Made by a program: the position numbers and the translations under genes. Positions 2,296-64,000 of a stretch of 64,000 nucleotides of DNA are shown here, piece after piece (positions within the stretch are counted from its first letter, which is position 1; every line of letters begins with the position of its first letter). This DNA comes from an uncultured Selenomonadales bacterium (GTDB taxonomy: Bacteria; Bacillota; Negativicutes; Selenomonadales; Selenomonadaceae), in NCBI GenBank assembly GCA_947304355.1, contig CAMZAX010000001.1, positions 78,950-142,949 of the forward strand, given 5' to 3'. The notes beneath the pieces were generated by a model. It made no database searches. It saw only the letters and a list, made by a program, of their open reading frames with translations, and was not told the DNA's origin.

Positions 2296-2318
2296 CTTCC
2301 GACACGCCGTAAACAAAA

Positions 2319-8054: not shown

Positions 8055-8072
8055 AAAATCAACTCCTTTGCA

Positions 8073-8162: not shown

Positions 8163-8163
8163 C

Positions 8164-14318: not shown

Positions 14319-14332
14319 GGTTGAAGCCTCCT

Positions 14333-14360
14333 TTGCCTTGTTGATTCGACGTGTTATAAT
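14333..14360 (+). promoter_or_regulatory. Sigma-70-like promoter
   Basis: TTGCCT, 16-nt spacer, TATAAT (14355..14360), with GTG-T just upstream of the -10. Confidence 0.5.
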
Positions 14361-14388
14361 AAAAAAAATTTTTGGAGGTGTCAATTCA

Positions 14389-38500: not shown

Positions 38501-39975
38501 CCGACGGCGCGATACGCCTGTCCAAGGAGATTGTGCAAAATCATCGTCGTGACGGTGTCGCCGCCTTCAAGCGTCAAAGCGCGTTCTGCAACTTTAATCG
38601 TGTCGCGGCAGTTGTTTTGGAAGAAATGAATTCGCGCCCGCAAAAGCAAACGATACGGCGACGGCGGGAAATTTTCTTCAAGCCAACTTACGACGGTCTC
38701 TGATTCGTCAGCCATCTTGTAATCGACGTAAACGGAGGCGACGCGTTCAATCGACGCGGGGTCGTCGGGTTTCAGCGCGAAAAGTTTTTCTGCCGCCCGC
38801 AAAATTTTTTCACGGTCGCGAAGGACTTCCACGGCGTGAATCAGCTCGGCGGTCAGCGCGGTGACGACTTGGGCTTTTTCTTCGGGCGTGAGTTGAATTT
38901 TCGTCTGCCATTCGTTCACGCGCGTCTCGGCGTAGCGACGGGTTTGTTCGTCGAAGGCAGACGATTCGTATTGTTCGCCGTAGTTCGCCGCCTTGTCCAG
39001 AGCCCTCCGCATTTCGGCAATCGCCGCCCGATAATCGCCGCGTTCGGCAAAAATCTCGGCGAGTCCTGCAGAAAATTCGGGCACGGCAGGATAACGTTCG
39101 ACGGCAAGTCGCGAGTACTTCAAGAAGTCGTCAGCCTGCGCGGGCTTGCGCGACAACACGTCCAACAAAACGGCGGTCGAGTTCTTTGACAGCGTCGCGC
39201 CCGTGTCGAAGTCAAGGCGCGCAAATTTTTCGGCGTTGTCGAAGTCGCCCAGCCCGTGATACGTTTCGGCGAGATAGCCGTAAATCCGCTTGGGATTGTC
39301 GGTCGCGGCGAGTTCGTCAAGCAAAAGTTTCAAGTTGCGCGTCATCTTGTCCTTGTGCAGCGACGCGGAATAGCCCGTGTGCCAAAGCGTGAGCATGTCG
39401 GCGGGGATTTGCATAAGGCTCGTCAACAGTTCGTCGCCGATAAAAACTTGCTCGTGAATCTTGCCGACGTAACGGACGCCCGCTGCGTTTTCAAACAGCC
39501 GCAAGACGCGATTGATGCCCAAATTTTTGTTGGCGTTCTCCGCGTCAATGTCGACACGACTTAAAAGCACGCCTTTGACATCGAGAGCTTGAGCGCGTTT
39601 GACGGCGTCGCGCAGATTTTTGGCGGTGTCGTTGACAAAAAATTCGTCGGCGTCGAGAAAAAGAATCCAATCGCCCGCAGCGGCTTGCAGAGCGACGTTG
39701 CGCGGGGCGGCGAAGTCGTTTTGCCACGGCTCGTGAAAAATTTTCGCGTTGAACTCTTCGGCGACGGCGACGGTCGAATCGGTTGAGCCGGTGTCGACAA
39801 CGATAATTTCGTCAACGTACTTGGCGACGCTCTCCAACGAACGGCGCAAATCGCGTTCGGCGTCCTTGACGATGTAGCACGCGGAGATTTTAACCTTGCC
39901 CTTTGTCCCTTGCCCCTTGTCCCTTGCCTTCCGCTTTGCCAAAATGCTCACTCCCGTAAAAAAATTTGTCGCCAT
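35539..39975 (-). CDS. Giant multidomain glycosyltransferase: GT2 + TPR + GT41(SPINDLY/OGT-like) + TPR + GT41
   Basis: ISACYIVKDAE...VVDTGSTD...DADE (GT2). Two paralogous blocks: KIRVGYISPDVRFH...DTAGHS...PIQISGIGY and IKIGYISGDFRKH...DLAGHT...PVQISGLGY. The start could instead be TTG 39942. Confidence 0.8.
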   Translation of the reverse strand: MATNFFTGVSILAKRKARDKGQGTKGKVKISACYIVKDAERDLRRSLESVAKYVDEIIVVDTGSTDSTVAVAEEFNAKIFHEPWQNDFAAPRNVALQAAAGDWILFLDADEFFVNDTAKNLRDAVKRAQALDVKGVLLSRVDIDAENANKNLGINRVLRLFENAAGVRYVGKIHEQVFIGDELLTSLMQIPADMLTLWHTGYSASLHKDKMTRNLKLLLDELAATDNPKRIYGYLAETYHGLGDFDNAEKFARLDFDTGATLSKNSTAVLLDVLSRKPAQADDFLKYSRLAVERYPAVPEFSAGLAEIFAERGDYRAAIAEMRRALDKAANYGEQYESSAFDEQTRRYAETRVNEWQTKIQLTPEEKAQVVTALTAELIHAVEVLRDREKILRAAEKLFALKPDDPASIERVASVYVDYKMADESETVVSWLEENFPPSPYRLLLRARIHFFQNNCRDTIKVAERALTLEGGDTVTTMILHNLLGQAYRAVGDVQRAVTHYEQNAKLDLTALKDSSQAAQAERIRREEYSNYLFNLHNLNVTREKIFDETRGFNDLLANIPRTAHNRKKHARHKKIRVGYISPDVRFHVVAFFSTHFFTGYDKTRFEVYIYANCGADNITEQFAAAVDTFRNISGVKASEVAAQILRDEIDILVDTAGHSANNSLEVLAYKPAPIQISGIGYFDSTGLDTADYFLADKFTDPEGLNEKFFTEKILRLQHSHFCYVWHDLQFVPAPAPCTKAGYVTFVSFNNFAKVTDEMLRLWAEILDGVPGSRLYLKNSVFRDEYGLELARERMTAAGIDLERVTYEAFETDYVKCYARADIALDTFPYPGGGTTCDALYMGVPVITLVGERHNSRFGYSLLKNIGLEELCAFSADEYVQKAIALANDRERLREYHLTIRRKMELSPVMNDTIYMGELEQAYEKIFNAWTAGKELPDFPQELEPVTPALADEYRRRAESYIPLEGRNGKSKFNRVDFKRTLYYAELAAQVKRDAKLLLTIADRRFLLDDNRGAYEMMREALEYLYPPKSDGKTYSKFFMAECHRKFAKFAHDNRQHVEAIKHYERAFELAETEQQQIELYDSILLILHFLDVSSAEMAAAHFDCQKFFEDVKPFTTYHERHDRIKIGYISGDFRKHAVFSVTFGFMSCHDRKKFEVTCYSRNPANDEYTDFFRRGVEHFVDVAALTAAQLAKKIHDDEIDIAVDLAGHTGKNGLPALAYRPVPVQISGLGYMSTTGLKQIDYFITDEELDPPNHRREEFFSEKFLYMPAQFSYARREDLPVPKGAPCRKNGFVTFGTICRYSKINDDMLAVWTEILRRVPTARLLMRAQEFISNRTQDELYGVMKGLGCDMERVIIRPAVHDYFGAISQIDIMLDAYPYVGGTTTLDALYMGVPVINLFGDRHGTRFGKSILHSVGLDELAVDNVDAYIQTAVALANDVETLDALHRNLRQMFLNSDALNPMTYCRRLEAKFAELLP
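39894..39928. repeat. Degenerate heptamer tract inside the N-terminal coding region of the giant glycosyltransferase
   Basis: CCTTGCC CTTTGTC CCTTGCC CCTTGTC CCTTGCC, translated on the minus strand as ARDKGQGTKGK. Confidence 0.85.
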
Positions 39976-41592: not shown

Positions 41593-43149
41593 TCAACCGT
41601 CAAGCGTCACGCTTGCATCGGCGAATTCGATAACAGCCGTCCTGTGCGTCGCAATGACAATCGTCCGGCGCAACGAGCGATCTTTAATCAATGCGAGGAC
41701 TTTGCGTTCCGTCGCTTCGTCGAGACCCGCCGTCGGTTCGTCGAGAAGGATTATCGGCGTGTCTTTGAGCAGCACGCGTATCAAGCCGAGCCGTTGCAGT
41801 TGTCCGCGACTGAGTTTCTGCGCGGCGTTCAAGTCGAACGGCAAGTTCAATGCGGACAAAAATTTTTTCAGGCGTGCGGCGTCGAGCGTGTCGAACATCG
41901 TGAAGTTGTCCATAAGCGGCGCGTCGAACAGGTGCGGGGCTTGCGGCGCGTACGAGACTTTCGACAGCCGAGAATTTTTTTCCATGCGCGAAGTCGGCAC
42001 GTCGTTCCAGAAAATTTCGCCCGCCGTCGGTTCAAGCAAGCCCGCCAACAATTTCAGCACCGTCGACTTGCCCGCGCCCGATTCGCCCGTCAAAGCCGTG
42101 ACTTTGCCCGCCGCAAATTTCAAGCTCAAGCCGCGTAAGACCGGCGATTTTTTTTTCGGGTAAGTAAAGCTCACGTCGTCGAACGTTATTGTTGGCGGCA
42201 TAAGTAAGGGACAAGGGACAAGGGACAAGGGACAAGGGGATTCGCCGATTATTTTCTGCAGTCGCTCAAGCGAAGACCGAGCCGAAATCATCACGTGGAA
42301 CGTCACGCCGAATTTGCGAATCGGCAAAAAAAATTCGGGCGCGATTAAAAGCAGGAATAACGCTGCTTGAAAGTCGACGCCGCCCGCCACAAGCCGTAAG
42401 CCCAACGTCACGGCGACCAACGCGATTGACAGCGTGGTTATCAGCTCCAGCGCGAACGACGACACGAATGCCAACTTCAACACGTCCAGCGTCGACGCCG
42501 AAGATTTTTCCGAAGCCGCACGGATTTTCGTCGCGCCCGCGTCGATTCGCCCGAACATTTTCAGCGTCGTTATCGCCGTCAGCAATTCGCGGAAATCGCT
42601 GTTGAGCCGTTGCAGCTCCGCCCAAGCCCGCGCGTTCCTGTCCGCCGTCGCTTTGCCAATCAACCACAAAAGCACCGGCGCAATCGGCAACGTCACAAGC
42701 AAAATCGCAGCCGTCAGCCAATCGACGAACGCCGCGCAGATTAGGAACAGCGGCAAGAAAATTATCGCCGAGACGACTTGCGGCGCGACTTTCAAAAAAA
42801 ATTCGTCTAACGCTTGAACGGTGTCGAATATCAGCGTCAACAGCTCTCCGCTTGAAGTTTCTGCGCCGTTGAAAAGTTGCGCGTGGATTTTTTTGCGGAA
42901 GGACGTTTGCACCTTGACAGACAGCCGCGCGAAAAATTTTTCCGTCACGCCCGACAAAACAAATCGTCCCGCGAAGAATCCGAACGCCGCCAACAAAAAT
43001 CCCGTCGACGGCGCGGCAATGAACTTCACCAACGAATTCGCGCCGAGCAAAATAAAAAATCCTTCGACGAGCTTGCAAAGCGCGATTCGGCTTAGGAATC
43101 GTCGTTCGGATTTCAAAGGCTCAAGCTTTTCGTAAAGTCGTCTCATCAA
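41593..43149 (-). CDS. Fused TMD-NBD ABC exporter (CydC/CydD-like family)
   Basis: Walker A GESGAGKST, signature LSRGQLQRL, Walker B ILLDEPTAGLD, H-loop ATHR. A heptamer-encoded insert sits in the linker. Confidence 0.8.
   Translation of the reverse strand: MMRRLYEKLEPLKSERRFLSRIALCKLVEGFFILLGANSLVKFIAAPSTGFLLAAFGFFAGRFVLSGVTEKFFARLSVKVQTSFRKKIHAQLFNGAETSSGELLTLIFDTVQALDEFFLKVAPQVVSAIIFLPLFLICAAFVDWLTAAILLVTLPIAPVLLWLIGKATADRNARAWAELQRLNSDFRELLTAITTLKMFGRIDAGATKIRAASEKSSASTLDVLKLAFVSSFALELITTLSIALVAVTLGLRLVAGGVDFQAALFLLLIAPEFFLPIRKFGVTFHVMISARSSLERLQKIIGESPCPLSLVPCPLLMPPTITFDDVSFTYPKKKSPVLRGLSLKFAAGKVTALTGESGAGKSTVLKLLAGLLEPTAGEIFWNDVPTSRMEKNSRLSKVSYAPQAPHLFDAPLMDNFTMFDTLDAARLKKFLSALNLPFDLNAAQKLSRGQLQRLGLIRVLLKDTPIILLDEPTAGLDEATERKVLALIKDRSLRRTIVIATHRTAVIEFADASVTLDG
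42208..42239. repeat. 4x perfect GGGACAA + GGGG, in frame within the ABC exporter linker
   Basis: Units at 42208, 42215, 42222 and 42229. The minus strand reads SPCPLSLVPCPL. Confidence 0.95.
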
Positions 43150-51907: not shown

Positions 51908-52783
51908 TCAGTTGTTGACGATAAAGCTCATTTCGGTCGTGAAAGTTTCGCCTACGCCGAGCGCGTTAATGCCTTCCTTGTCCTTGAAGTCGCCGTCGAA
52001 GTCAACGTAATCGGCGTGCCCGTGCCAAGGCTCAATGCAGATAAACGGCGCGCCGCCGCAATCGGGTGTCCAAATGCCCCAATACGGGAAGCCCTTTGCG
52101 CGAATCGTCAGCGACTTGTGGCTTTTGCGCGAGCAAACGGAAATTTCGTCGGACTGCAGGTCGTCAAAGATAAGCGCGTCGCCTTTGAACAGGTCGTAAT
52201 TCAAATCAAGCTCCGTGCCGTCAAGCGTCGGGATTCTCTCGTGCGACAGACCGTTTGCCGTAAGCAACAGCCGCGCAGATTTTTCGGGCTTGTTGAATTT
52301 CAAGTAGCAGTCGGTGAAATTTTCGCGATAGGCAATCGGGCAACAAATCGCCGGGTGCGCGCCGATTGAAAAGTAAATCGTCTTGTCGTCGACGTTGCGA
52401 ACCTTCCAGATGAATTTGACTTCGTTGCCTGTCAACTCGTAGGAAAGCTCCAAGCGGAACCTGTACGGATACATCTTGAGCGTCGCGGCGTTGGATTCAA
52501 GCGCGAACGTCAAAGCGTTGGCTGTGGCGTCGACGAGCCAAAAATCACTCGTGCGGGCGAAACCGTGTTGCGGCAAAGCAAAGTTCTTGCCTTCGGCGCG
52601 ATACTTGCCGTCTTTGACCTTGCCGACAATCGGGAACAGAATCGGCGAAGAATATCTCCACCACTTCGGGTCGCTGTCGAACAGATACTCGGTGCCGTCA
52701 GAAAGCGCGGTTATTGCTTTGAGCTCCGCGCCGCGATCGGCAACCTTGATTTTGAGCACGTCGTTTTGAATCGTGTGCAACAT
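51908..52783 (-). CDS. Aldose 1-epimerase-family protein (LacX/YihR-like)
   Basis: SPILFPIVGKVKDGKY...LPQHGFAR. ATG 52783 with GGGAGG upstream. Confidence 0.75.
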   Translation of the reverse strand: MLHTIQNDVLKIKVADRGAELKAITALSDGTEYLFDSDPKWWRYSSPILFPIVGKVKDGKYRAEGKNFALPQHGFARTSDFWLVDATANALTFALESNAATLKMYPYRFRLELSYELTGNEVKFIWKVRNVDDKTIYFSIGAHPAICCPIAYRENFTDCYLKFNKPEKSARLLLTANGLSHERIPTLDGTELDLNYDLFKGDALIFDDLQSDEISVCSRKSHKSLTIRAKGFPYWGIWTPDCGGAPFICIEPWHGHADYVDFDGDFKDKEGINALGVGETFTTEMSFIVNN

Positions 52784-52798
52784 TGTAAAACCTCCCAC

Positions 52799-54304
52799 TC
52801 AATCAAAAATTTCATACGCGCCGAAGAAAATCAGAATTTCGCGCGCCGCGCTCGTCTCGCTGTCGGAGGCGTGCACGGCGTTTTTGGTTTTGTCCTCGGC
52901 GTAAAGCTTGCGAATCGTACCGTCGGCTGCCTCGGCGGGGTTGGTCGCGCCGTTGAGCTCGCGGACTTTTTTTATCACGTCGTCGCCGCAAAGCACCAAC
53001 GCCATAATCGGCGCGCTCGTCATGAAGTCAACCAGCGCGGGATAATAAGGACGTCCGATGTGTTCGACGTAATGTTTCGCGGCAAGTTCGGGCGTCATGC
53101 GCATGACTTTCGCCGCCAAGATTTTAAAGCCCGCGTCTTCGTAGATTTTGAGAATTGCGCCCGCGTGACCTTTGCCGAACGCGTCCGGCTTGATAAGCAC
53201 CAAAGTTTTTTGCATAGAGTTTGCTCCTCCGTAAAATTTATAAATGTCTTCCGCTGAATTTATTCCGTAGTCGCTAAGTTTGACGGCTCGCATGAAATTT
53301 CCTGTCTTGTGCCGATACCAAGTCATAACCTCGTTCATGGTCGGCGAAGGCAATTTCAACGTCTCGGCGAACTGCAAGAGAATGTCCAAGCCGAATTCAA
53401 AATCGCACTTGAAATATCTGTTGTCGAAGTCGGGACGCCAACCGTCGGCGGCTTGTTTCATCGGCGAAAGGATTTTGCTTAAAGACGAAATGCTCCGCAA
53501 CTTTTTCGTCAAGGCGGGAATGGTGTCGCTCTCGTAGTGAATTTTCAGCGAAATTACGTCACTCAAGTCAACTTCAGGCAACGCTCGGCAGATGGCTTGA
53601 ACTTCGTCATCAAGCTTGAATAAAATTTCGGAGGCTTTATCGTTCCACGCCGCATAAAAAAGTTCATTGCGTTCAAAAGCCGAATCCGACTGCCCGAACA
53701 TTGCATAAAGCCGCGACGTGTGCAGGACGGGATTTGACGGCGTCAACGTTATAGACAAATAATTATCGGTCGCCGCGCAGGGGACGGTAAAAAGTTTTTC
53801 CATGTCGCGAACGACAGAGGTTGTATCTTTGCCGCGAAATGCCGCCAAGCTTATCGACGGCTTGCGCTCAAACCAAACGCTTTTGCCGTATTGTTTCAGG
53901 CGGGCGATATACGGCACGCGCGTGAAGCCGAACAACTTCGCGCCGCGTTTCAAAAGCGGTTGCAACAAAAATTCTGCGCCGCCGAAGCCCGGTATCATTA
54001 CAAGCTTTGTTTTGTAGTTGACGAAGGGCGCAACTTTTTCGGCGAAGGCAGCTTGAACATGCGACGGCAACGTTACGAAAATGTAATCGGTCGAATCGAA
54101 AGCCGCCGCCGCGTCCGACGTTACCAAGTTCAAATCGGCGGAAAATTCCTGCGCGGGCTCCCCCGAAGTGGTAATCGACGCAAAAATTTTTCTTTGCCAA
54201 TCTTGCGGGCGTGAAGTCAAAACGTTGACCGTATGATTTTTCGCGGCGAAGTCGACAGCCATTGCCGTACCCAAGTTGCCGCCGCCGACGATGCAAATTT
54301 TCAT
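52799..54304 (-). CDS. In-frame fusion of an opine (octopine/nopaline-type) dehydrogenase-like domain and nucleoside-diphosphate kinase
   Basis: MKICIVGGGNLG Rossmann start and TPSNPVLHTSRLY (Octopine_DH-like). The C-terminal 138 aa, MQKTLVLIKPD...NAVHASDS, is NDK. An internal GGAGGAG SD lies 8 nt before the NDK ATG (53215). Confidence 0.7.
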   Translation of the reverse strand: MKICIVGGGNLGTAMAVDFAAKNHTVNVLTSRPQDWQRKIFASITTSGEPAQEFSADLNLVTSDAAAAFDSTDYIFVTLPSHVQAAFAEKVAPFVNYKTKLVMIPGFGGAEFLLQPLLKRGAKLFGFTRVPYIARLKQYGKSVWFERKPSISLAAFRGKDTTSVVRDMEKLFTVPCAATDNYLSITLTPSNPVLHTSRLYAMFGQSDSAFERNELFYAAWNDKASEILFKLDDEVQAICRALPEVDLSDVISLKIHYESDTIPALTKKLRSISSLSKILSPMKQAADGWRPDFDNRYFKCDFEFGLDILLQFAETLKLPSPTMNEVMTWYRHKTGNFMRAVKLSDYGINSAEDIYKFYGGANSMQKTLVLIKPDAFGKGHAGAILKIYEDAGFKILAAKVMRMTPELAAKHYVEHIGRPYYPALVDFMTSAPIMALVLCGDDVIKKVRELNGATNPAEAADGTIRKLYAEDKTKNAVHASDSETSAAREILIFFGAYEIFD

Positions 54305-56130
54305 GCCGCCAACTCCTTTTTCAGCGCGGCAAGCAATTTGTCATTGTCTTCCGTCGCACGCACCGCCAAGCGCAGATAATTCTTGCCCGAAACTTTTGCC
54401 GACAGGTCTTTGACTAAAATGTTGCTGCCGATTAAAAGCCGCTTACAAAGCTCCTTCGACGACGTGTCGCCCGTAAGTTCAATCATGATGAAATTCGCCT
54501 GCGACGGCACGACGCGCACGCCCGAAATTTTTTCCAGCTCGGCGGCAAAGCGTCTGCGTTCAGCGCGGAGGCGGCAGAGCGATTCGACATAGGCACGCTT
54601 GTACTTCTCGAAAATCTGCATGTAAAATTCCGCGAACGAATTGATATTCCAAATGACGGCGTCCCGTTTCAGCGCGGCGATAAGTTCTTCGTCGCCCGAA
54701 GCCAACACGCCCAAACGCAGTCCGCCGATGCCGTGAGACTTCGACAGGCTCTTCATAACGCAAAGGTGTTTGTTTGCGCTCAAAATTTTTTGCTCAATCA
54801 ACGTCGCGTCCTCGTCGGCGAAGTCTGCAAAGCTTTCGTCGACAATCAGCCGAATATTTTTTTCCGCCGCCCAATTAATCAGCCGAATCAGTTCAAGTTT
54901 CGGAATGAAGTTGCCCGAAGGGTTGTCGGGATTGACGACGACCAGCGCGCTTATCTCCTGCCCGCCGAAGAAATTCATCAGCTCGGCGGCGGTGTAGGAA
55001 AAGTTTTCGTTGTCCGGCGCGAAGTAAACGGATTCGGCTTTGTCGTAACGGTTGGGATATTCCTCGAACGTCGGGCGCACGAAACCGACTTTGCCCGAAA
55101 GACGTTGCAGTAGCGACTTAATCAGCTCGGCGGCACCGTTGCCGACCAAAATATTTTCCTCGTGCACGCCGAAATTTTTCGCTGCAAGCAAAGCGTTGAC
55201 TCTCATGCCGGACGGATATTGCGTCAAAAGTTTTGCGGCGTTGGCGGTAATTTCTTCGACAAGCCTTTGCGGCGGGAAGTAGGGATTAACCAGATAACAA
55301 AAATCAATCAGCTTGGGATAACGCCAGTAGCCGCCGTAACGCCCTTGAATGCGTGCAAGCTTTTCGTCGGCGTCGGGCGCGAAGATTGATTCGGCAATGT
55401 CCAAATCCTGAATGTCGTCGATTTCGTACCAGCGCAAAGCTTTGTCGCGCTCACGAATCGAATCCAACCGCTTGGCGCGAATCTCCGGCTCGTCGAGAAT
55501 CATAATGACGCGCAAAACCTGTTCGTAATATTCGTTGTTGCCCAGAGCTTTCGAGTAGGCGTCAAGGAAAGGCACGTAAAGATTTTCTGAGAAATGCCGC
55601 CCGAATTTGTAAATGTTGACGGTCTTGTAGCAGTCGGCGGTATCCTTGAAGTCAAAGTTCTTGCCCGAAATGAACTTGTCGATTTTGTCGTCGGCGGTGA
55701 GTTTTATGCAGGTGCCGTCCATCCAGCTTTCGTACTTGTCGACGAGCGCGAGCGTTTCACGCGGGTCGTTAAGCAACGCCTCAAGCAAGCTGTCTTCAAA
55801 AATCAAATCGGACTCAAGCAAAAGCGTATCTTCCTTGCAAAGAAAATCTTTCGCCAGAAACAGTGAATAGATATTGTTCGTCTTGTCGTAAGTCGGATTG
55901 TTGACGTAGACAATCGGCGTCTGAATGTCGAGCGTGGCGATATAGTCAATCAGCTTTTGACTTTGATAGCCGACGACGATAACAATGCGCGACAGGTGTT
56001 GCTTTTCGAGCTGGTGAAGCATTCTGTCAATCAGCGTGACGCCGTTGACTTTGACCATGCATTTGGTGTTGTCTTGCGTCAATTCTTTCAGCCGCTTGCC
56101 CATGCCCGCAGCGAGAATAACAGCTTGCAT
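54301..56130 (-). CDS. Fusion of a LicC/MobA-like nucleotidyltransferase and a class I/II PLP enzyme (HisC/CobD-like)
   Basis: MQAVILAAGMGKRL...NNIYSL (NTP-transferase); NPDNPSG...SLSKSHGIGGLRLG (PLP lysine). Confidence 0.75.
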   Translation of the reverse strand: MQAVILAAGMGKRLKELTQDNTKCMVKVNGVTLIDRMLHQLEKQHLSRIVIVVGYQSQKLIDYIATLDIQTPIVYVNNPTYDKTNNIYSLFLAKDFLCKEDTLLLESDLIFEDSLLEALLNDPRETLALVDKYESWMDGTCIKLTADDKIDKFISGKNFDFKDTADCYKTVNIYKFGRHFSENLYVPFLDAYSKALGNNEYYEQVLRVIMILDEPEIRAKRLDSIRERDKALRWYEIDDIQDLDIAESIFAPDADEKLARIQGRYGGYWRYPKLIDFCYLVNPYFPPQRLVEEITANAAKLLTQYPSGMRVNALLAAKNFGVHEENILVGNGAAELIKSLLQRLSGKVGFVRPTFEEYPNRYDKAESVYFAPDNENFSYTAAELMNFFGGQEISALVVVNPDNPSGNFIPKLELIRLINWAAEKNIRLIVDESFADFADEDATLIEQKILSANKHLCVMKSLSKSHGIGGLRLGVLASGDEELIAALKRDAVIWNINSFAEFYMQIFEKYKRAYVESLCRLRAERRRFAAELEKISGVRVVPSQANFIMIELTGDTSSKELCKRLLIGSNILVKDLSAKVSGKNYLRLAVRATEDNDKLLAALKKELAA

Positions 56131-57944
56131 TAAATCATCTCCGGTTCTTTTGCTACTGCGTTAAAAATAAATTCGCTTGCCGACATGCCGTTGCGCTTGC
56201 GATAATTCAAACACGCGTCGAAAACTTCGCGGCGTTTGTCTTTCAGCGGGTCGTCGCCTTCGATAAAAATCTTTTGAACGGCGGCGGCAATTTGCTCGTG
56301 ATTTTTCCCGTCGACAATGTATGAAACTTCCAAGATTTTTTCGCCAAGTTCGGTGAATCGCTCCGCCGGGTTATTTAACAGAAAAATCATCGGCTTGTGC
56401 GTGAATTGATATTCGGCAATGAAAGAGCAGCTGTCGTGAATCATGCCGTCGCTTGTGGCAAAAATCGCTTGATAGTAGCCGCCGGTGCAGACTTGCGCGT
56501 TGGGCAGGTCGTTCCACATCTGCAGATACTCGTTGAATGCCTCGTCGGAAGGAAAAAGCTTTGTATTGGTTGCCACTCTCAGCAGGCGGGGATGCGGCTT
56601 GACGACCCAAGACGTTTCGGGGTGCGCCTTTGCGAATTCGTACATGAATTTATAATTCCAAGGAAACGTCGCGTAATTTTCGGGCGGGTTGTCGTATTCA
56701 AACGACCAATGCGGTGCCCAAATGATTTTCACGGCGTCGGAGCGCGTCTTCTTCCACGGGAACGAAAGTTTGTCGGCGTTCTCCAAAAGCAAATCCATTT
56801 TCGGCGCGCCGCTGACAAAAGCGCGCGGGACGCCAACTTTGCAACCTGCGTCAAAGAACTTGAGCGTAACTTCGCTGTTGAAAAAAAGTTTCCACGCGAG
56901 GCAGAAGACGGGAAGATTGCAATTCCAATTAATTAATACCGGACCAATGCCGTAGTGCATATAACATATGAGCGTTTGCGGTGTCAGCACGTCGAATTGA
57001 AAGCTCCGCGAAAAATGTTCGAAATACGGGCGCAAGAAAAACACCACGTCTTGAGGCGGCGTCTCTTCCTGCAAATCGTAAATGGCGACGACGTTAAGCC
57101 CTGCCGTCTTGAATTGCTCGACATCGTGCACGGCGTCCGCCAAGGTTGATTCTTCACCGTGACAAAGAAAAATCGTCGTCTCGAAACGCGGATTCTCGGC
57201 AAAGAGATTGTACAGCTTATCGCCGCACCACGTGGCAGCGTGATCCGTCACGAAGGCGACGCGAATTTTTTTCTTGCAGCGGAGGTTTTCGACGGTGATT
57301 GAAAAAATTTTCGCCATCAGCTCGTTGAAAAAATCTTTGTCCGTCACGTAAGACAGCGCGAAAAAATACGAATACGGCAATCGGCAAAAATCTTCCTGCG
57401 AAAAAATTTGCAAGTTAAGCAACCGCATTGCCAACGTCACGCTCGCGACGAGTGCGCCCGCGTCATTTAAGCGCGTCTCGTCGTCGAAGGCGGTTTCGGA
57501 AATTTTCACGTCGAACATATCCAAAACCTTGAGGTCGCGGGATTTTTGCAGCTCGGTCAAAATATCGACAAGCGGCGTCAGAAACATTTTTTGATAACGT
57601 GCGCGGGCGGCGGGGGCGACGGGCATAATCACCGCGACGGGCAACGCGCCTTTAGAGCGGCAAAGTTCAATGCAGTCGCTTAAAGCCTGAAAGTTGTCGT
57701 CGAAGACTTCGGGCGTCAAATTATCGTTCGCGTCGCGAAACAACACGTCGCAAGTCAAACCGATAAGCACGAAATTAATTTCGCCGCGCCCGACCAGTTT
57801 GAAAAGACTTTCCGCCGTCGCAAGGCTTTGTGGAAGAGTTTGTCCGTTGCCGGCGAAGTTGCCGCTTTGCGAATCGACGGGCGTCAAGAGATTCAAATTA
57901 AGCCCCGCTTTGACCGCACCGTTACCGATTGCAAAAAATTTCAT
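56130..57944 (-). CDS. TagB/TagF-family (CDP-alcohol phosphotransferase-like) enzyme with an N-terminal SGNH/DltD-like domain
   Basis: C-terminal IIWAPHWS...SDGMIHDSCSFIAEYQFTHKPMIFL corresponds to the YAPTxR...DYSS...KP pattern of Glyphos_transf as I recall it. Confidence 0.6.
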   Translation of the reverse strand: MKFFAIGNGAVKAGLNLNLLTPVDSQSGNFAGNGQTLPQSLATAESLFKLVGRGEINFVLIGLTCDVLFRDANDNLTPEVFDDNFQALSDCIELCRSKGALPVAVIMPVAPAARARYQKMFLTPLVDILTELQKSRDLKVLDMFDVKISETAFDDETRLNDAGALVASVTLAMRLLNLQIFSQEDFCRLPYSYFFALSYVTDKDFFNELMAKIFSITVENLRCKKKIRVAFVTDHAATWCGDKLYNLFAENPRFETTIFLCHGEESTLADAVHDVEQFKTAGLNVVAIYDLQEETPPQDVVFFLRPYFEHFSRSFQFDVLTPQTLICYMHYGIGPVLINWNCNLPVFCLAWKLFFNSEVTLKFFDAGCKVGVPRAFVSGAPKMDLLLENADKLSFPWKKTRSDAVKIIWAPHWSFEYDNPPENYATFPWNYKFMYEFAKAHPETSWVVKPHPRLLRVATNTKLFPSDEAFNEYLQMWNDLPNAQVCTGGYYQAIFATSDGMIHDSCSFIAEYQFTHKPMIFLLNNPAERFTELGEKILEVSYIVDGKNHEQIAAAVQKIFIEGDDPLKDKRREVFDACLNYRKRNGMSASEFIFNAVAKEPEMI

Positions 57945-57959
57945 TGTGTCGCCTCCGAA

Positions 57960-58544
57960 TCAAAGCGCGCCCTTCGTCGAGGGAATGCCGGTAATTTTGT
58001 CGTCGTGAGCGACCGCCGTCCTTAATGCGTGCCCCAACGCCTTGAATATCGCTTCAACCTTGTGGTGAGAATTTTTGCCGTAAAGAATTTTGACATGCAA
58101 CGTCAAGCCCGCGTTGAAGGCGAAGGCGCGCAAAAATTCTTCGACAAGCTCGGTGTCGAACGCTCCGATTGTCGGGGCAAGTTCGCCGATTTCGCAAACC
58201 AAGAACGGGCGTCCGCTGATGTCCAGGCTGACAAGGGCAAGCGTCTCGTCCATCGGCAAGAAGAACGTCCCGTAGCGCGTGATGCCGCGTTTGTCGCCCA
58301 GAGCCGCCTTCAACGCCGCGCCCATTGCGATTCCGATGTCTTCAACGCTGTGGTGCCCGTCGACTTCCAAATCGCCTGCGCAGACGACCTTCAAATCGAA
58401 CTGCCCGTGCGCCGCGAACAAATTCAACATGTGGTCAAAAAATCCTATGCCCGACGAAATTTCAGCCGTGCCCGCGCCGTCCAAGTTCAATTCAACGTCA
58501 ATGCGCGTTTCGTTCGTCGCGCGGTTAATTTTGCCGATTCGCAT
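57960..58544 (-). CDS. hisB: Imidazoleglycerol-phosphate dehydratase
   Basis: RATNETRIDVELNLDG, HHSVEDIGIA, HHKVEAIFKA. Confidence 0.93.
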   Translation of the reverse strand: MRIGKINRATNETRIDVELNLDGAGTAEISSGIGFFDHMLNLFAAHGQFDLKVVCAGDLEVDGHHSVEDIGIAMGAALKAALGDKRGITRYGTFFLPMDETLALVSLDISGRPFLVCEIGELAPTIGAFDTELVEEFLRAFAFNAGLTLHVKILYGKNSHHKVEAIFKALGHALRTAVAHDDKITGIPSTKGAL

Positions 58545-58656
58545 TCAACACTCCTCCAAAAAAAATTTACGAAACTAGCAATGCGCCAGCGTTGCGTTCC
58601 GTCGCGGCGATGACCTTTGAATCATGAGCGGCACGGCGCGACTGCAGGATGCAACG

Positions 58657-59724
58657 TCACGTTGCTCCGACCTCCAAGAAATTTTCTATCGCGGCAAAGA
58701 CTTCGTTGTTTTCGTCGCGCGTGCCGATTGAAATGCGCAGGCAGTTCTTCAGCCCGAACGCCGTCGGCGAAAAGTAGCGTATGCCTATGCCCAACGATTC
58801 AAGATAGTCTTTAAGCTCCTCCGCGCGTGCGAGCCGAATCAGCAAAAAATTCGCTTCGGACGGAAAGACTTTGACGCCGGGCAGGGCTTTAAGGCGTGCT
58901 CTCATGCGTTCGCGTTCGTCGATTATCATTTTCATACGCGGGATAAATTCTTCGCGCATTTGATAGACGACGTCCGCCACCGCCAAGCTTAAAACGTTCA
59001 AGTGATACGGCATGAAAGTTTTGTTAATCATGCGTGTGACTTCGGCTTGAGCAATCATGTAACCGACGCGCGCGCCCGCCAGCCCGTAAGCTTTTGAGAA
59101 CGTGCGGGCGACAATCAAGTTGGGGTATTGCGCGACGAGCGCGACTGCCGATCGTCCGTAGAATTCGACGTAAGCTTCGTCGAGCAGGAAGGGGCAATTA
59201 ATCGACGCGGCGATATGTTCGACCTGTTCGGGCGTCAAGGCGTTGCCTGTCGGGTTGTTCGGGTTGCAGACGACGGCAAGGCTTGCGTCGACAGAACGAA
59301 TCTTTTCAATGAACGCGTCCGCGTCCAAATCGAAACGCCTGCCCAAGTCGAAAGGCACGCCGTCAGCATCGGCAGCCTTCGCGTAGATTTTGTACATGGA
59401 AAAGCTCGGTTGCGGGTAGACAATCTTCCTGCCCGCGCCGCCGAACGCGTGAAAAACTTTTTCGATAATTTCGCTTGAGCCGCCGCCCAATAAAATCTGC
59501 GCGGCGTCGACGGAAAAATTTTGAGCAATCTGCTTGACCAGCGAATAATATTCCTCGTTCGGGTAGCGATTGAGCGCAAGCAACGCAAGCCGATTCATTA
59601 CGCGTTCTTCGACGGCGGGCGGCAGTGACAGCGTCGATTCGTTTGCGTTGACTTTGACGCGATAATTTTTTTCCACTCCGTCATAGGACGGCATTTCGTC
59701 GAGTCCGTTTCTGTAGTTGAGCAT
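58657..59724 (-). CDS. hisC: Histidinol-phosphate aminotransferase
   Basis: NANES, NPNNPTG, DEAYVEF, TFSKAYGLAGARVGY, PSEANF. ATG 59724 with AAGAGG upstream. Confidence 0.88.
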   Translation of the reverse strand: MLNYRNGLDEMPSYDGVEKNYRVKVNANESTLSLPPAVEERVMNRLALLALNRYPNEEYYSLVKQIAQNFSVDAAQILLGGGSSEIIEKVFHAFGGAGRKIVYPQPSFSMYKIYAKAADADGVPFDLGRRFDLDADAFIEKIRSVDASLAVVCNPNNPTGNALTPEQVEHIAASINCPFLLDEAYVEFYGRSAVALVAQYPNLIVARTFSKAYGLAGARVGYMIAQAEVTRMINKTFMPYHLNVLSLAVADVVYQMREEFIPRMKMIIDERERMRARLKALPGVKVFPSEANFLLIRLARAEELKDYLESLGIGIRYFSPTAFGLKNCLRISIGTRDENNEVFAAIENFLEVGAT

Positions 59725-59903
59725 TCGCAAAACCTCTTGCAGTTTTTGACGTGATTATATCAGCTGCCGAAAACTTTTGCACTAAAAATTTTTGCGCCGA
59801 CACCCGTGACTTGAAGCGCACCGCGCAACTTGACTGCCAAAAACCGAACTGATAAACTGTCTTCTATAATGATTGTAATGTGTAATTTTTTGGGGGTGTT
59901 CTC

Positions 59904-62498
59904 TTGAATAAATTTGATACCGTCCTCGTTATGCCCGATCAGACTTTTCTTGAAAATGCCGTATCAAATTTGAACTTGGATAACGTAAACCTGGTCGCCG
60001 TCATGACCGAAACCGCAGACGACGCAGAGCCGCTGACAATCAATCAGCAAATCGTCCTGCACGTCGACTTTTCCGCCGTCAAAGAACTTTTAAATCAAGA
60101 GAGCGACACGCTGTGGCTTATCTGCGGCTGCTTGAACGGCATTGAAGACATTCGCCGCGCCAAGGAACGCTTGACTGCCGACGGCGTCCCCGAAGACAAA
60201 ATTATAAACTTTGAACTCGCCGCGCAGATAAATTTTGCATGGTTGGCAAATCTCCGCCACGTCGAAAAGAACGGCGCAGATTTTTTCGTGACGGGTGCCT
60301 CGCTCAGCGAACTCGGTCTGGATTTCAAATACATGCCCGGCGGCACGGGCGTCAATCTCGCCGACTGCAGGCAAGATTTGCGGCAAAGTTATCTGACTGC
60401 CAAACACGTCTTTGAACACGTCGCGCCCGGCTCCGTCAAGTTCGTCCTTATCGGCATTGAGCCGTTTGCGTTTGATTACGACGACCTCGACAGCTTTGCC
60501 GTCTTCCCGAAAAATTTTCAATACGAACTCGCGTTCAACGACGCGCCGAATTTTTCTGCCCTGCGCCGACCCGAATTGCTCAACGAAATTGTCAAAGAGC
60601 AACTCAAGCCCGCGTCCGTCGAAAAGCCCGATTTGAACTTCGACAACACGAAAGCTTACTTCAAGCAGCTGTTCCCGAACAAAATGTTGCTTGCGTCCAA
60701 GGGCGACATGAAATTTCTGACTGCCGCCGACATCGATAAAAATCTGCAAATCCTCAATGAATACATCGCTCTTTGCCGCGCGCACGGTGCCAAGCCCGTC
60801 GGCGTGATTATCCCGTTCCCGTCCGCGACTAAAAATTTCGTCGACGAAAAAATTCTTGAAACCTTCCGCCAAAAGCTCCGCACCCTCGAAAAAGATTCCG
60901 ATTTCTTTTTCGCAGACCTGTCCGTCGCAAATCTCCTTGACAATTATTTTTACTCGCCGTATCACTTGAACTTGAAGGGTGCCGTCGCAACGAGTGTTTT
61001 ACTCAGCACGCGCCTCTTCGGCAAGGAAATTGTTTCGTCGCAGGAAATTTGCAACATGAGCAGCGAATATTTCGACGTGCTGTCAAAAATGTTCCCGAAA
61101 AATTACAACACGGTCATGGCGCAAATCTTCACCGACATACCTTACGACAACTTCAAACAGCTGTCCGACAAAATACCAAAGGAAAGTTTCTGCGACTTGC
61201 TGGAACAATTTTTCTTCGACATGCCCTATGACGAATTCAAAAAGCTGTCCAAGACTTTGCCCAAAGACGAGTACAACGACTTCATGGCGCAAACCTTTGC
61301 GGCGTCCGAACGCAGACTAAGCCGCGCGAAAAAAATAAAAGTCGGCTTCGTCATATTCAATTCGTCAATGTGGTGCGGCGACGAACTGTATAACCTCTTC
61401 GCCCGCGACGAACGCTTCGAGCCGACCGTTTTCCTCTGCCGTTCTAACGAAGACTTCAGAAACATGCTTGTTCAAGACGAATTCACGCAAAGCGTCGAAC
61501 GTTTCAAATCCCACGGCTTGAATCTCGTCTTGCCGACAAGCATAGACGACAAAATGCCTCCGCAAGATATTTTGATTTTGCTGTCGCCGTATGTGCCGCC
61601 TTTGCCGAGAGACTTTCGCACGTCGACGCTCACAGTGAAAACTTTGATGATTAACATTCCGCATTCGCTCAGCATTTCAAAGCGCGACGAATTTTTGGAC
61701 AGCTCCCTTTTCCATGTCGTGTGGAAAATGTTCTTTTCGTCGACGATCGAATTGGAACTGCAAGACAAAATGTGCTCCGTGGGTATGCCGCGCGGCATTT
61801 ACAGCGGCTATTCGAAAATGGACGAGTTCTTTGACCCGAATCGGATTTTCAGTTTCAGCTGGAAGTTGACGCGCCCCGACGCCAAAAAAATCATTTACGC
61901 GCCGCATTGGTCGATAAACGCCTCCACAAAATACGCAACCTTCCAATGGAATTATCAATTCATGTACGAATTCGCCAAAGCGCACCCGGAAATTTCTTGG
62001 GTCGTCAAGCCGCACCCCGCGCTGTTTTTCTCGGCACTCGATGAAAATATTTTCCCGTCTTCTGTCGAACTTGAAGAGTACTTTCAAAAGTGGGACGACT
62101 TGCCAAACGCGCAGGTTTACACAGGCAACTACTATCAGTCAATCTTCGCCACGAGCGACGGCATGATTCACGACAGCGGCTCCTTTATCGCCGAATATCA
62201 ATACGTCGATAAGCCGATGATTTTTTTGACGCGCGAAGGCGAAGTTTTCAACGAACTGGGCGAAAAAATTTTGGCGGCGTCCTATCCTGTCGACGGCAAA
62301 GATTTTGACGCCATCTCCGCCGCGATACAAAAAATCTTCCTGCAGGGCAACGACGACAAGTATGCCGAGCGCAAGGCTGTTTTCGACGAGTATCTTAATT
62401 ATCCGAAGTATCTGGGTATGTCGGCGAGCAAATTCATTTACAGAAGCATTGCCGAGGCTCTCAAGCCGGCAGTCGGCGTAAAAGGGGCTAGGAACTAG
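59904..62498 (+). CDS. Second, longer TagB/TagF-family paralog with an SGNH/DltD-like N-terminal region and 28-aa tandem repeats
   Basis: IIYAPHWS...SDGMIHDSGSFIAEYQYVDKPMIFL is highly similar to 56130..57944. The last codons and the TAG stop lie in a heptamer tract. Confidence 0.6.
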   Translation: MNKFDTVLVMPDQTFLENAVSNLNLDNVNLVAVMTETADDAEPLTINQQIVLHVDFSAVKELLNQESDTLWLICGCLNGIEDIRRAKERLTADGVPEDKIINFELAAQINFAWLANLRHVEKNGADFFVTGASLSELGLDFKYMPGGTGVNLADCRQDLRQSYLTAKHVFEHVAPGSVKFVLIGIEPFAFDYDDLDSFAVFPKNFQYELAFNDAPNFSALRRPELLNEIVKEQLKPASVEKPDLNFDNTKAYFKQLFPNKMLLASKGDMKFLTAADIDKNLQILNEYIALCRAHGAKPVGVIIPFPSATKNFVDEKILETFRQKLRTLEKDSDFFFADLSVANLLDNYFYSPYHLNLKGAVATSVLLSTRLFGKEIVSSQEICNMSSEYFDVLSKMFPKNYNTVMAQIFTDIPYDNFKQLSDKIPKESFCDLLEQFFFDMPYDEFKKLSKTLPKDEYNDFMAQTFAASERRLSRAKKIKVGFVIFNSSMWCGDELYNLFARDERFEPTVFLCRSNEDFRNMLVQDEFTQSVERFKSHGLNLVLPTSIDDKMPPQDILILLSPYVPPLPRDFRTSTLTVKTLMINIPHSLSISKRDEFLDSSLFHVVWKMFFSSTIELELQDKMCSVGMPRGIYSGYSKMDEFFDPNRIFSFSWKLTRPDAKKIIYAPHWSINASTKYATFQWNYQFMYEFAKAHPEISWVVKPHPALFFSALDENIFPSSVELEEYFQKWDDLPNAQVYTGNYYQSIFATSDGMIHDSGSFIAEYQYVDKPMIFLTREGEVFNELGEKILAASYPVDGKDFDAISAAIQKIFLQGNDDKYAERKAVFDEYLNYPKYLGMSASKFIYRSIAEALKPAVGVKGARN

Positions 62499-62513: not shown

Positions 62514-62556
62514 AAAAAATCCCCGCCGCTCTTCGTGAGTGACGGGGATTTTTATT
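62514..62556. terminator. Bidirectional terminator hairpin, near-duplicate of 32857..32888
   Basis: AAAAAATCCCCG ... CGGGGATTTTTAT. Shares TCCCCGCCG...GTGAGTGACGGGGATTTTT with the earlier site. Confidence 0.6.
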
Positions 62557-62583: not shown

Positions 62584-64000
62584 TTATTTGTCGTCGCCCA
62601 TGTAGCTGACAACGGGAGTGAAGCTGTCCTTCTTGACGAGATCCAAGCCTGCGTCGAAGTCATAAGGCGTGTAACTCGCGCTGAAGGCGTCCGTAATGTC
62701 GGTGAGTGCCGCCGCGTCCGTGCTGTAGTTGTCGTCCGCCAAAAGGACATCAGAGCTCGCCTTATAACTCGGTTCGATCGCGTTGCCTTTGGTGTCGACG
62801 ATACTTATCGACGCAATGGCGGAGCCTTTGCCTGTCAAGGTAATGGTGCCTTCGTTTTTGGTGCCCGCGCCGATTGTGATGACAGCATTCGAGCCGTCTT
62901 TTTCAATAGCGATGACATTGGCTTTGGCGTTGGTCATGATTTTGTCTGTTGCCTGCGCGAAGCTTGCGATAGTGTCGTCGCCGTCGCCCGTCGCGTAGTA
63001 GAACGTATTGTTGCCGCCGCCGCTCTTAATGGAGTCGTCGCCTTTGCCAGCGTTGATACTCGCGCTGCCGCCCGAAATGCTGATGGAGTCGTCGCCTGCG
63101 CCCGCCGCGATAGAGACGCCTGCGCCCGCCGCAGTAATCGTGTCGGCAGTCGACGCGCCCGTTATCTTGCCGGTGTAGTCGCTTGCGAATTTGAAACCGT
63201 AAGTCTCTTTGCCGTCGATTGTCACGGCTTTGCTGAGTTTTTCCGTCGCGGGCGAAATCGTGGTCGAGGAAGTCGTGAAGCTGTAGCCGTCCATTGCGCC
63301 CTTGTTGACGCCCTTGATAACCGCGAGAACCGCTTTCGGCTGGTCGTTGGTGTAAGTAAGTTTCGTGTCGCTTGTTTGCGTGAAGCCCGCCGAAACCGAG
63401 GCAGTCAAGTTGGCGGTCGTGCTTGTGCCGGTTACCCACTTTGCCGTTGCTTGCGGCGTCGCTTTTGTGGCGTCGGAGCCGAGGACAAGCGTGTATTCGG
63501 AAGGAACGCTGTCAACGGTCTTGTTGGTGAGCGTGACGGTCTTGCCGTCGAGCTGAGCCGCGCCCAACGTGATGACGTTATTTTTGACGAGACCGCTGAT
63601 GTCAACGTCTTTCTTTATGCCGCTGACTTCGGCGTAGACTTTGCCTTTTTCGTCAAACGGCTTGTTGTAGACGATCGCGCCTTTGTCGAGCGTGTAATAA
63701 GCCGGTTTGTAAGTCTTCAAAGTGGCTTTCACGCTACTGGTGACCCATTCGGTTTTCAGCTTTTTTGCGTATTCCGCGTCGGGGATTTTTTCGCCGAGGG
63801 CAAGCGCGTAGGTGTAGCCCGTCGCGTTTCTGATTGTGACTTTCGACGTGCCGAGCAAATCAGGGTCCTCTATGGTGAGGGTGTCGTTCTTGTTTTCCGG
63901 CGTGTTGATGACTGTAGCGTCAATGTCGCCTTCAAAAGTTTTGCTGAGCCCGCTTATCGTCGTAAGAACCGCGTTGTCCTGGTTCGCCGTGTACTCCAAG
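62584..64000 (-). CDS. C-terminal part of a large secreted repeat protein with RTX-like Gly/Asp repeats (N-terminus outside the window)
   Basis: AGAGDDSISISGGSASINAGKGDDSIKSGGGNNTFYYATGDGDDTI; Thr/Lys-rich beta-type repeats. The ORF is open to the window edge. Confidence 0.6.
   Translation of the reverse strand, partial: LEYTANQDNAVLTTISGLSKTFEGDIDATVINTPENKNDTLTIEDPDLLGTSKVTIRNATGYTYALALGEKIPDAEYAKKLKTEWVTSSVKATLKTYKPAYYTLDKGAIVYNKPFDEKGKVYAEVSGIKKDVDISGLVKNNVITLGAAQLDGKTVTLTNKTVDSVPSEYTLVLGSDATKATPQATAKWVTGTSTTANLTASVSAGFTQTSDTKLTYTNDQPKAVLAVIKGVNKGAMDGYSFTTSSTTISPATEKLSKAVTIDGKETYGFKFASDYTGKITGASTADTITAAGAGVSIAAGAGDDSISISGGSASINAGKGDDSIKSGGGNNTFYYATGDGDDTIASFAQATDKIMTNAKANVIAIEKDGSNAVITIGAGTKNEGTITLTGKGSAIASISIVDTKGNAIEPSYKASSDVLLADDNYSTDAAALTDITDAFSASYTPYDFDAGLDLVKKDSFTPVVSYMGDDK

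Follow-up and report, generated by a model that had tools for sequence, protein, structure and literature searches.

In the Lic (LicA/LicC/LicD) and Pnt (PntC) pathways of phosphocholine and aminoethylphosphonate decoration, a small head group is activated as its CMP or CDP derivative by an enzyme of the LicC fold and is then transferred by a member of the LicD family, which is known chiefly as a decorating enzyme. The logic of a CDP-activated head group and a phosphotransferase, as in Lic, Tag and Pnt, is already known, and so are the families LicC, CobD, opine dehydrogenase (ODH) and TagF. To our knowledge, FrbH from the biosynthesis of the phosphonate antibiotic FR-900098 in Streptomyces is the only characterised enzyme with a cytidylyltransferase/pyridoxal phosphate (PLP)-decarboxylase architecture; its decarboxylase domain is CobD-like. 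In FrbH an N-terminal cytidylyltransferase is followed by a C-terminal decarboxylase, and 2-amino-4-phosphonobutyrate is cytidylylated and then decarboxylated (PMC8976061, PMC9088020). According to work cited in PMC4141209, opine dehydrogenases, including tauropine dehydrogenases, are found in both the ODH and the OCD family, and strombine dehydrogenase in the latter. Proteus O-antigens are known to bear an opine-type compound, N-[(R)-1-carboxyethyl]ethanolamine phosphate (PMC9630907), and genes for it are not mentioned in a survey of the O-antigen gene clusters of this genus. Here, a locus was analysed in which a nucleotidyltransferase/PLP fusion gene lies between a TagF-like gene and an ODH gene, next to hisC and hisB. 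It is contained in a stretch of 64,000 nucleotides from an uncultured rumen bacterium of the Selenomonadaceae (assembly GCA_947304355.1, contig CAMZAX010000001.1, positions 78,950 to 142,949 of the forward strand), referred to below as the window; all coordinates of the locus count from its first nucleotide. Close homologues carry source names that likewise place it in this family, and one close NDK homologue bears the name Quinella.

We consider it reasonably probable that these three genes form a cassette which was inserted into a housekeeping hisCB-ndk operon, and which works via an FrbH-like route towards decoration with (carboxyalkyl)ethanolamine phosphate, the chemistry being one that we infer. 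The initial annotation had instead proposed that HisB and HisC provide a histidinol-derived head group. Of that proposal, the activated amino-alcohol phosphate stands, since a CDP-activated and possibly opine-modified head group is the most reasonable product, and the derivation from histidinol does not.

All genes of the operon lie on the minus strand. hisC (histidinol-phosphate aminotransferase, 58657-59730; ATG initially placed at 59724) is separated by a spacer of 112 nt (58545-58656) from hisB (imidazoleglycerol-phosphate dehydratase, 57960-58544; IGPD E=4e-64); in L081, L083 and L089, three of the related loci compared below, the two genes overlap by 4 nt. A spacer of 15 nt that contains GGAGG leads to the TagF-like "group A" gene (TagF-A, 604 aa, 56130-57944), which is joined by a TAATG overlap to the gene of the LicC/PntC-like nucleotidyltransferase/CobD-like PLP fusion (609 aa, 54301-56130). 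By its coordinates, the fusion gene overlaps by 4 nt with an open reading frame (ORF) of 501 aa (52799-54304) that carries Octopine_DH and NDK domains. The ODH domain corresponds to residues 1-363 (53216-54304; Pfam Octopine_DH E=3e-25) and the remainder to the resident ndk (52799-53215; NDK E=1e-48). The last gene is aldose-1-epimerase-like (51908-52798; Pfam Aldose_epim E=7e-29), with a 15-nt gap ahead of the ATG originally chosen for it. A second TagF-like gene ("group B", 864 aa, 59904-62498) is transcribed divergently from hisC on the plus strand, and a promoter-like site (59830-59858) and a terminator-like site (62530-62548) lie around it. Within the operon, the promoter and terminator scan was uninformative, and terminator-like sites were present without enrichment. 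Every ORF of the initial annotation was found where it had been placed. Re-reading of the junctions bore out a translationally coupled gene set by its overlaps and short gaps. Its composition likewise held in domain searches, which identified TagF-type phosphotransferases, a LicC-type nucleotidyltransferase fused to a PLP domain of the HisC/CobD fold, and a genuine member of the opine dehydrogenase family. As originally noted, no further his gene was found among the scanned ORFs of the window, which comprise most of the larger ones.

For comparison, contigs with HisB homologues from other Selenomonadaceae were used. In loci L083 and L084 the gene order is rny(-), hisC hisB ndk aldose-epimerase, MCP, M23(-) ftsX(-), and the epimerase gene after ndk is an orthologue (79% identical) of that in the window. 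L085 has the order rny(-), hisC hisB ndk, and L081 has hisC and hisB alone. No cassette is present in any of these four loci, and ndk directly follows hisB in L083 and L085. By blastn, window and L083 are collinear through hisC (59767-58697), hisB (58543-57970), ndk with the epimerase gene (53230-51930) and M23/ftsX (51833-49663), and window positions 53231-57969 have no match anywhere in L083. This jump from hisB to ndk points to an insertion of about 4.7 kb (approximate boundaries ~53231-57969, minus strand) that holds exactly TagF-A, the fusion and ODH. The GC content of the three inserted genes is 0.50-0.51, compared with 0.53-0.56 for the flanking genes. We therefore regard hisC, hisB, ndk and the aldose-epimerase gene as a probable ancestral housekeeping string, into which the cassette appears to have been inserted between hisB and ndk. 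Since this string occurs free of the cassette in the same synteny, the histidine genes would be neighbours by history and stand outside the pathway, and the initial view of hisB/hisC, ndk and the epimerase gene as pathway members finds no support. Group B of the TagF-like genes occupies the place directly upstream of hisC where relatives carry rny, and so it is apparently a separate, second insertion.

The histidine genes themselves also have a housekeeping character. Window HisB and HisC are 86-92% and 80-85% identical, respectively, to the copies at the same locus in relatives, and both score above the cutoffs of their NCBIfam equivalogs (HisB NF002111, 273.2 bits, cutoff 231; HisC TIGR01141, 301.7 bits, cutoff 276.55). 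A lone hisC-hisB pair was found in all nine distinct contexts of relatives that were inspected, except L088, where hisB occurs without hisC. Judged by synteny and identity, the window copies appear to be orthologues of the housekeeping copies, and not recruited paralogues as had been suggested.

At the hisB/ndk slot of other Selenomonadaceae, the cargo was found to vary. The fusion is located there in the window, L001, L005, L040 and L089. L089 resembles the window (hisC, hisB, TagF-A and fusion; TagF-A 59% identical), L040 and L005 have the order cassette-ndk-hisC-hisB, and L001 has the order hisC-hisB-methyltransferase-fusion-ODH-OCD-ndk. In L088, hisB is accompanied by a methyltransferase and a TagF-A orthologue (54%), and in L086 a radical-SAM/SPASM gene and a thioesterase gene come after hisB. 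L087 carries TagF-A (58%), an S-adenosylmethionine (SAM) methyltransferase, a HAD hydrolase and an IspD-like nucleotidyltransferase (4559-8827 of that locus) upstream of ndk-hisC-hisB, and no CobD-like domain; its slot is apparently filled by a different head-group cassette. Altogether, of 11 distinct hisB contexts of Selenomonadaceae, 7 have cassette or TagF-A genes by hisB or ndk, and these occur in two gene orders. TagF-A takes this position in the window, L040, L087, L088 and L089 (orthologues 53-63% identical), and cassette genes do so in L001 and L005. The hisCB and ndk flanks are constant (80-92% conserved), and the cargo between or beside them differs in both content and chemistry. A comparable arrangement is known from Escherichia coli and Salmonella, in which the rfb (O-antigen) cluster adjoins the his operon. 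There, too, a variable surface-polysaccharide locus lies next to histidine genes with no metabolic link, whereas the cassette described here is placed inside the hisCB-ndk transcription unit and not merely adjacent to it.

The distribution of the fusion was determined across GTDB species, each represented by a single genome. At least 591 loci encode it, and the best 80 of these were examined. Sources are mostly rumen and gut. Selenomonadales fusions among the 80 are 81-84% identical to that of the window, and at 64-72% identity the fusion occurs in Lachnospiraceae, Ruminococcus, Oscillospiraceae, Christensenellaceae, Erysipelotrichales, Coriobacteriales, Treponemataceae and Bullifex. Cultured strains with the cassette include Butyrivibrio sp. 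AE3009 (L034) and MC2021 (L049), Sarcina sp. DSM 11001 (L029) and Schaedlerella arabinosiphila DSM 106076 (L075). Among the fusions of one Lachnospiraceae, one Treponemataceae and one Coriobacteriales genome, pairwise identity is 79-81%, which points to transfer between phyla. When the 80 loci were searched by tblastn with the window proteins, hisB/hisC adjoined the fusion in three (L001, L005 and L040, all Selenomonadales). They were absent beside the fusion in the Selenomonadales loci L002 and L003, for which full flanks of 10 kb were available. In L002 and L004 the cassette adjoins gyrB.

For a census of neighbours in the 80 loci, all neighbouring ORFs were clustered, representatives were scanned, and four genes on either side of the fusion were counted. 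LicD was found in 27 loci, mostly as the gene immediately before the fusion, and a TagF-like gene in 18, seven of which also have a YidC-sulfatase membrane protein. ODH is present in 36 loci and an OCD/mu-crystallin protein, often in its place, in 15; both occur together in five. GT2 and GT4 glycosyltransferases, a Wzx-type flippase, a DegT aminotransferase, dTDP-sugar enzymes and an ABC ATPase are located farther from the fusion. By gene content, the neighbourhood is best described as a surface-glycan context.

Two further features of these neighbourhoods were observed. In some Selenomonadales a SAM methyltransferase gene (Methyltransf_11) lies directly upstream of the fusion (L001, 4767-5501; L040, 9293-10000), which hints at N-methylated head groups, possibly at de novo phosphocholine formation by methylation of ethanolamine phosphate. 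In L008, L013, L042, L057 and L076, the fusion or reductase is followed by an HTH-LicC-like nucleotidyltransferase, Amidohydro_3 and a nucleotidyltransferase/choline-kinase fusion; this recurrent triad suggests that these loci have another head-group pathway as well.

These comparisons bear directly on the histidinol model, according to which HisB and HisC make L-histidinol phosphate, the fusion converts it to CDP-histidinol, perhaps after opine formation, and the TagF-like enzymes attach or polymerise it. The model draws on the co-directional and tightly spaced arrangement of hisC-hisB with the cassette, on the recurrence in 7 of 11 contexts, and on the PLP domain, a HisC homologue whose fold binds histidinol phosphate. 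Against it stand the cassette-free hisC-hisB-ndk-epimerase string of identical synteny and the wide occurrence of the fusion, with 77 of the 80 loci, L002 and L003 included, lacking hisB/hisC nearby. In L087 the IspD-like nucleotidyltransferase without a PLP domain indicates that the chemistry of the cargo changes and hisCB stay, and HisB and HisC score as housekeeping equivalogs. In addition, a fused decarboxylase or aminotransferase domain would be idle on histidinol phosphate, and the single hydroxyl of histidinol precludes polymerisation. We regard the model as highly improbable and reject it on the comparative grounds of synteny and distribution. Nothing points to a metabolite common to hisCB and the cassette, and the tight spacing with hisCB, ndk and the epimerase gene would mark the landing place of the cassette, not a shared pathway.

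The apparent fusion of ODH to NDK was examined at its junction. The protein reads ...YKFYGGANS followed by MQKTLVLIKPDAF, and the DNA retains the ribosome-binding site and ATG of ndk ('ggaggagcaaactct ATG', ggaggagcaaactctATG). ODH and ndk are separate genes in L001, L005 and L040, and in L040 the TAA of the orthologous ODH gene immediately precedes the ATG of ndk. In the 90% cluster to which the 501-aa protein belongs (70 members), the others listed are NDKs of 137-140 aa, bar one entry of 99 aa; named members belong to Selenomonadaceae or Quinella. No ODH-NDK fusion was found in L001, L005, L040 or the listed members of this cluster. The fused ORF is apparently due to loss of the ODH stop codon, or to an assembly error, peculiar to this contig, and the opine-DH/NDK fusion drops out as the functional unit for which it had been taken. 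A designed bifunctional enzyme for CTP regeneration was also considered and rejected: the stop loss is a singleton, and ndk is resident at cassette-free loci.

The fusion enzyme consists of an N-terminal nucleotidyltransferase domain (residues ~1-240) and a C-terminal CobD-like PLP domain (~265-607). Pfam matches are Aminotran_1_2 (E=5e-32), PF12804 (NTP_transf_3, E=1.5e-10) and PF00483 (NTP_transferase, E=3.7e-10). In the N-terminal domain LAAGMGKRL represents the G-x-G-x-R-L nucleotide-binding signature, and PDB matches include PntC (6pd1, E=3.5e-13) and LicC (1jyk, E=3.5e-12). The PLP-lysine motif of the C-terminal domain is SLSKSHGIGGLRLG. For this domain the best PDB match is 6oux, "threonine phosphate decarboxylase-like" (E=1e-45), which we take to be the serine-phosphate-specific decarboxylase SMUL_1544; CobD entries rank next, ahead of those clearly named HisC (E=5e-30 or weaker); CobD 1lc5 matches at E=4e-26. 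Among NCBIfam models, CobD TIGR01140 gives 193.3 bits (cutoff 290.55) and hisC TIGR01141 gives 151 bits (cutoff 276.55). By best-hit similarity the domain is thus closest to decarboxylases of the CobD type, and it is not a member of the CobD equivalog. With CobD and SMUL_1544, enzymes of (nor)cobamide biosynthesis, it shares the PLP-lysine motif, and it differs from them by its score below the equivalog cutoff, its fusion to a nucleotidyltransferase and its location outside a cobamide context.

In domain order on one chain the enzyme corresponds to FrbH, to which it is likened by described architecture. FrbH converts one small phospho(no)-amino acid to a CMP-linked amine, and 2-amino-4-phosphonobutyrate is the C-P isostere of O-phosphoserine. 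However, FrbH is encoded in a phosphonate antibiotic cluster with phosphoenolpyruvate (PEP) mutase, whereas the fusion described here is found among surface-glycan genes, and its product would be handed to a phosphotransferase and not tailored into an antibiotic. Relative to Lic and Pnt, the activation by a LicC-fold enzyme is alike; the differences are that there is no choline kinase or transporter here, that the head group would be made de novo by the fused PLP domain, and that a TagF-like enzyme stands in the place of LicD in Selenomonadales. In the literature, neither a characterised LicC-CobD fusion nor an opine dehydrogenase in a Lic-type pathway was found.

If the PLP domain were an aminotransferase, it could convert dihydroxyacetone phosphate to serinol phosphate, from which CDP-serinol would be made; with this donor the TagF-like enzymes could assemble a teichoic-acid-like poly(serinol phosphate) chain, and ODH would act on the amine. 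Phospho-substrate aminotransferases do occur within the HisC/CobD fold, and the hisC model still scores 151 bits. Precedents are Campylobacter jejuni Cj1437 and Cj1436, which make serinol phosphate and ethanolamine phosphate, respectively. TagF and TarL are polymerases, serinol offers two hydroxyls, and the substrate is a central metabolite for which no extra gene is needed. Yet the best matches are decarboxylases, with 6oux well ahead of any HisC entry and the CobD model outscoring the hisC model, and FrbH as the sole characterised enzyme of this architecture is a decarboxylase. In most other taxa, moreover, the partner is LicD. We consider the serinol route unlikely.

A different substrate for a decarboxylase was considered as well, either L-threonine O-3-phosphate, leading to CDP-(R)-1-amino-2-propanol, or a phosphonate (2-amino-4-phosphonobutyrate or an aminoethylphosphonate precursor) as for FrbH and PntC. 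CobD proper is a threonine-phosphate decarboxylase, and the match of the N-terminal domain to PntC 6pd1 would fit a phosphonate. The threonine-phosphate version is countered by the presumed serine-phosphate specificity of 6oux, and no threonine kinase (PduX-like) turned up among the annotated recurrent neighbour families. For the phosphonate version, the PEP-mutase motif EDKxxxxxNS was absent from the window and from 83 of 85 loci, and a phosphonate pathway was rejected on this search. In the other two loci the motif (EDKKGLKKNS) lies ~7 kb from the fusion (L054, ~18612; L077, ~18603), possibly representing a phosphonate-linked subset. Together these substrates appear rather improbable.

The CobD similarity could also indicate a cobamide enzyme unrelated to surface polymers, in which CobD (aminopropanol phosphate) is joined to a CobY-like adenosylcobinamide-phosphate nucleotidyltransferase. 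CobD is the best NCBIfam match, and cobamides are made by rumen bacteria. However, no cob/cbi genes were found among the annotated recurrent neighbour families of the 80 loci, in which the fusion is surrounded by genes for LicD, TagF-like enzymes, glycosyltransferases, a flippase and dTDP-sugar synthesis. No CobY entry occurs among the PDB matches of the N-terminal domain, which are LicC, PntC and sugar- or inositol-phosphate nucleotidyltransferases. A cobamide role was rejected for the absence of cob/cbi genes, and we assign it a very slight probability.

The ODH domain scores 89.3 bits with PF02317 (Octopine_DH, cutoff 30) and aligns over its full length with the Pecten octopine dehydrogenase 3c7a (E=5e-19). 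Its residues H195, R296 and D301 match H212, R324 and D329 of that enzyme, of which D329 is presumably the Asp of the His-Asp relay, so that the catalytic dyad and the Arg are kept. The roles of these residues in octopine dehydrogenase have been described (PMC2924402). As in the octopine and tauropine dehydrogenases, the enzymes here comprise an ODH type alignable end to end with the Pecten enzyme and, in some loci, an OCD-family substitute. Taurine, the substrate of tauropine dehydrogenase, resembles ethanolamine phosphate. We know of no opine dehydrogenase that is tied to the synthesis of a glycan head group. The predicted product of the cassette, in turn, is already known chemically as a glycan substituent, namely from the Proteus O-antigens.

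The TagF-like proteins were analysed with a profile built from 21 family members, on which the calls of invariant residues are also based. Against Pfam Glyphos_transf (PF04464), TagF-A gave no match and group B 20.4 bits (cutoff 22.1) as single proteins; 20 of the 21 members match at E<=0.01. The profile matches TarL 8va1 (E=1e-13) and TagF 3l7j (E=3e-7). The two window paralogues are 42% identical, and group B is 46-50% identical to the TagF-like genes of L002-L005. In TagF-A, G379-x-P-x-x-D384, P450-H451 and D499/D504 align with "GVPRTD", "MHP" and "TDLLISDYSS" of TarL, and G379, D384, P450, H451, D499 and D504 are invariant across the 21 sequences (motifs GxPxxD, PHP and SDxxIxDxSS). We take the conserved histidine of the HP motif to be the counterpart of H584 of TagF, whose second catalytic histidine is presumably H444. 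It is the only invariant His of the alignment, and the alignable region of TarL begins past the position equivalent to H444. TagF-A is proposed to be a CDP-alcohol phosphotransferase that places a phospho-head group on a glycan. Homology with TagF and TarL at the profile level and the common GxPxxD, (K/M)HP and SDxSS motifs are in line with this role. Unlike TagF and TarL, the proteins described here carry long unrelated N-terminal extensions of 200-450 aa, and the proposed donor is without a second hydroxyl, so that a monotransferase and not a polymerase would be expected.

For the cassette we propose the following sequence of reactions. After insertion, the cassette would now be co-transcribed with hisC, hisB, ndk and the epimerase gene, and the histidine genes would supply nothing to its pathway. 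The LicC-like domain of the fusion would cytidylylate a phospho-amino acid with CTP and the CobD-like PLP domain would decarboxylate it, in either order. Since the fusion is accompanied by neither a kinase nor a PEP mutase, O-phospho-L-serine, a central metabolite, would be its simplest substrate and would yield CDP-ethanolamine. ODH would carry out a reductive condensation of the free amine and a 2-oxo acid, for instance pyruvate, giving an N-(1-carboxyalkyl)ethanolamine phosphate head group. The TagF-like enzyme would finally use the CDP donor to place the head-group phosphate on a hydroxyl group of a surface glycan (such as lipopolysaccharide, O-antigen or capsule), with release of CMP. The predicted head group lacks a second hydroxyl and would hence serve for decoration, not for polymerisation.

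Several observations weigh against this proposal. The assignment as decarboxylase follows from best-hit ranking, which by sequence leaves decarboxylase and aminotransferase undecided: the CobD score of 193 bits lies below the cutoff of 290 and outside the equivalog, and the same fold includes aminotransferases (HisC; Cj1437). In 34 of the 80 loci, the four genes on either side of the fusion include neither ODH nor OCD, which makes N-carboxyalkylation optional at best. No large polysaccharide cluster was found beside the cassette among the scanned ORFs of the window. Finally, the recurrence by hisB/ndk in 7 of 11 contexts and two gene orders is more persistent than casual insertion, and needs either an old insertion with rearrangement or a preferred site. 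We read this recurrence as the outcome of a single old insertion, into an operon that is well expressed, with later local rearrangement and replacement of cargo. The two gene orders are cyclic permutations of each other, and tandem duplication with subsequent loss could yield them. Selection for co-expression may be another account.

Elsewhere, the other scanned ORFs of the window are mostly housekeeping genes (dnaK, dnaJ, leuS, rmlD, ruvB, DAHP synthase, trmB, tsaD, holB, fabF, ftsX and an M23 peptidase). A 6S RNA was detected at 24774-24954 (+) with 46.7 bits against an Rfam gathering score of 46.4, and a LigB-AMMECR1 fusion ORF at 14317-15783 (+). Positions 1-4000 have a low GC content (0.41-0.43, compared with ~0.55 elsewhere) and contain a DUF4417 ORF (836-1537, -) and an ORF with a bacterial EndoU nuclease domain (3140-3631, +); this stretch may be a toxin or mobile islet. 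At 35539-39975 (-), a protein of 1478 aa contains GT2, TPR repeats and several stretches of the GT41 (O-GlcNAc-transferase-like) type, with an ABC exporter nearby (41593-43149), and may be an enzyme of protein or flagellin glycosylation. An ORF with RTX/hemolysin-type calcium-binding repeats (62584-63999, -) extends past the end of the window; giant HemolysinCabind proteins were also observed near hisCB in L086 and L089.

Beyond this locus, we tentatively put forward, as a possibility that falls short of probable, that the fusion, its ODH/OCD partner and a LicD or TagF-like transferase constitute an undescribed, horizontally mobile pathway of rumen and gut Bacillota, Spirochaetota and Actinomycetota, with 591 or more species genomes carrying it. 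It would form a CDP-activated amino-alcohol phosphate de novo, tailor the amine by opine-type carboxyalkylation and in some loci by methylation, and transfer the product to a glycan. In the literature, no description was found of an FrbH-like de novo head group outside phosphonate metabolism, of its pairing with an opine-type reductase, or of this wide gut and rumen spread. Charged head groups of glycans such as phosphocholine, phosphoethanolamine and aminoethylphosphonate affect immune recognition, phage adsorption and resistance to cationic peptides. If the proposal is true, it would supply the missing genetics for substituents of the N-(1-carboxyethyl)ethanolamine-phosphate type, which so far are known only chemically, and would bring an enzyme architecture, otherwise known only from the biosynthesis of a phosphonate antibiotic, into the mainstream biology of the cell envelope. 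Many rumen and gut anaerobes would then make their head group without uptake of ethanolamine or choline, and a zwitterionic or anionic surface decoration would be a common and hitherto unrecognised feature of gut anaerobes.

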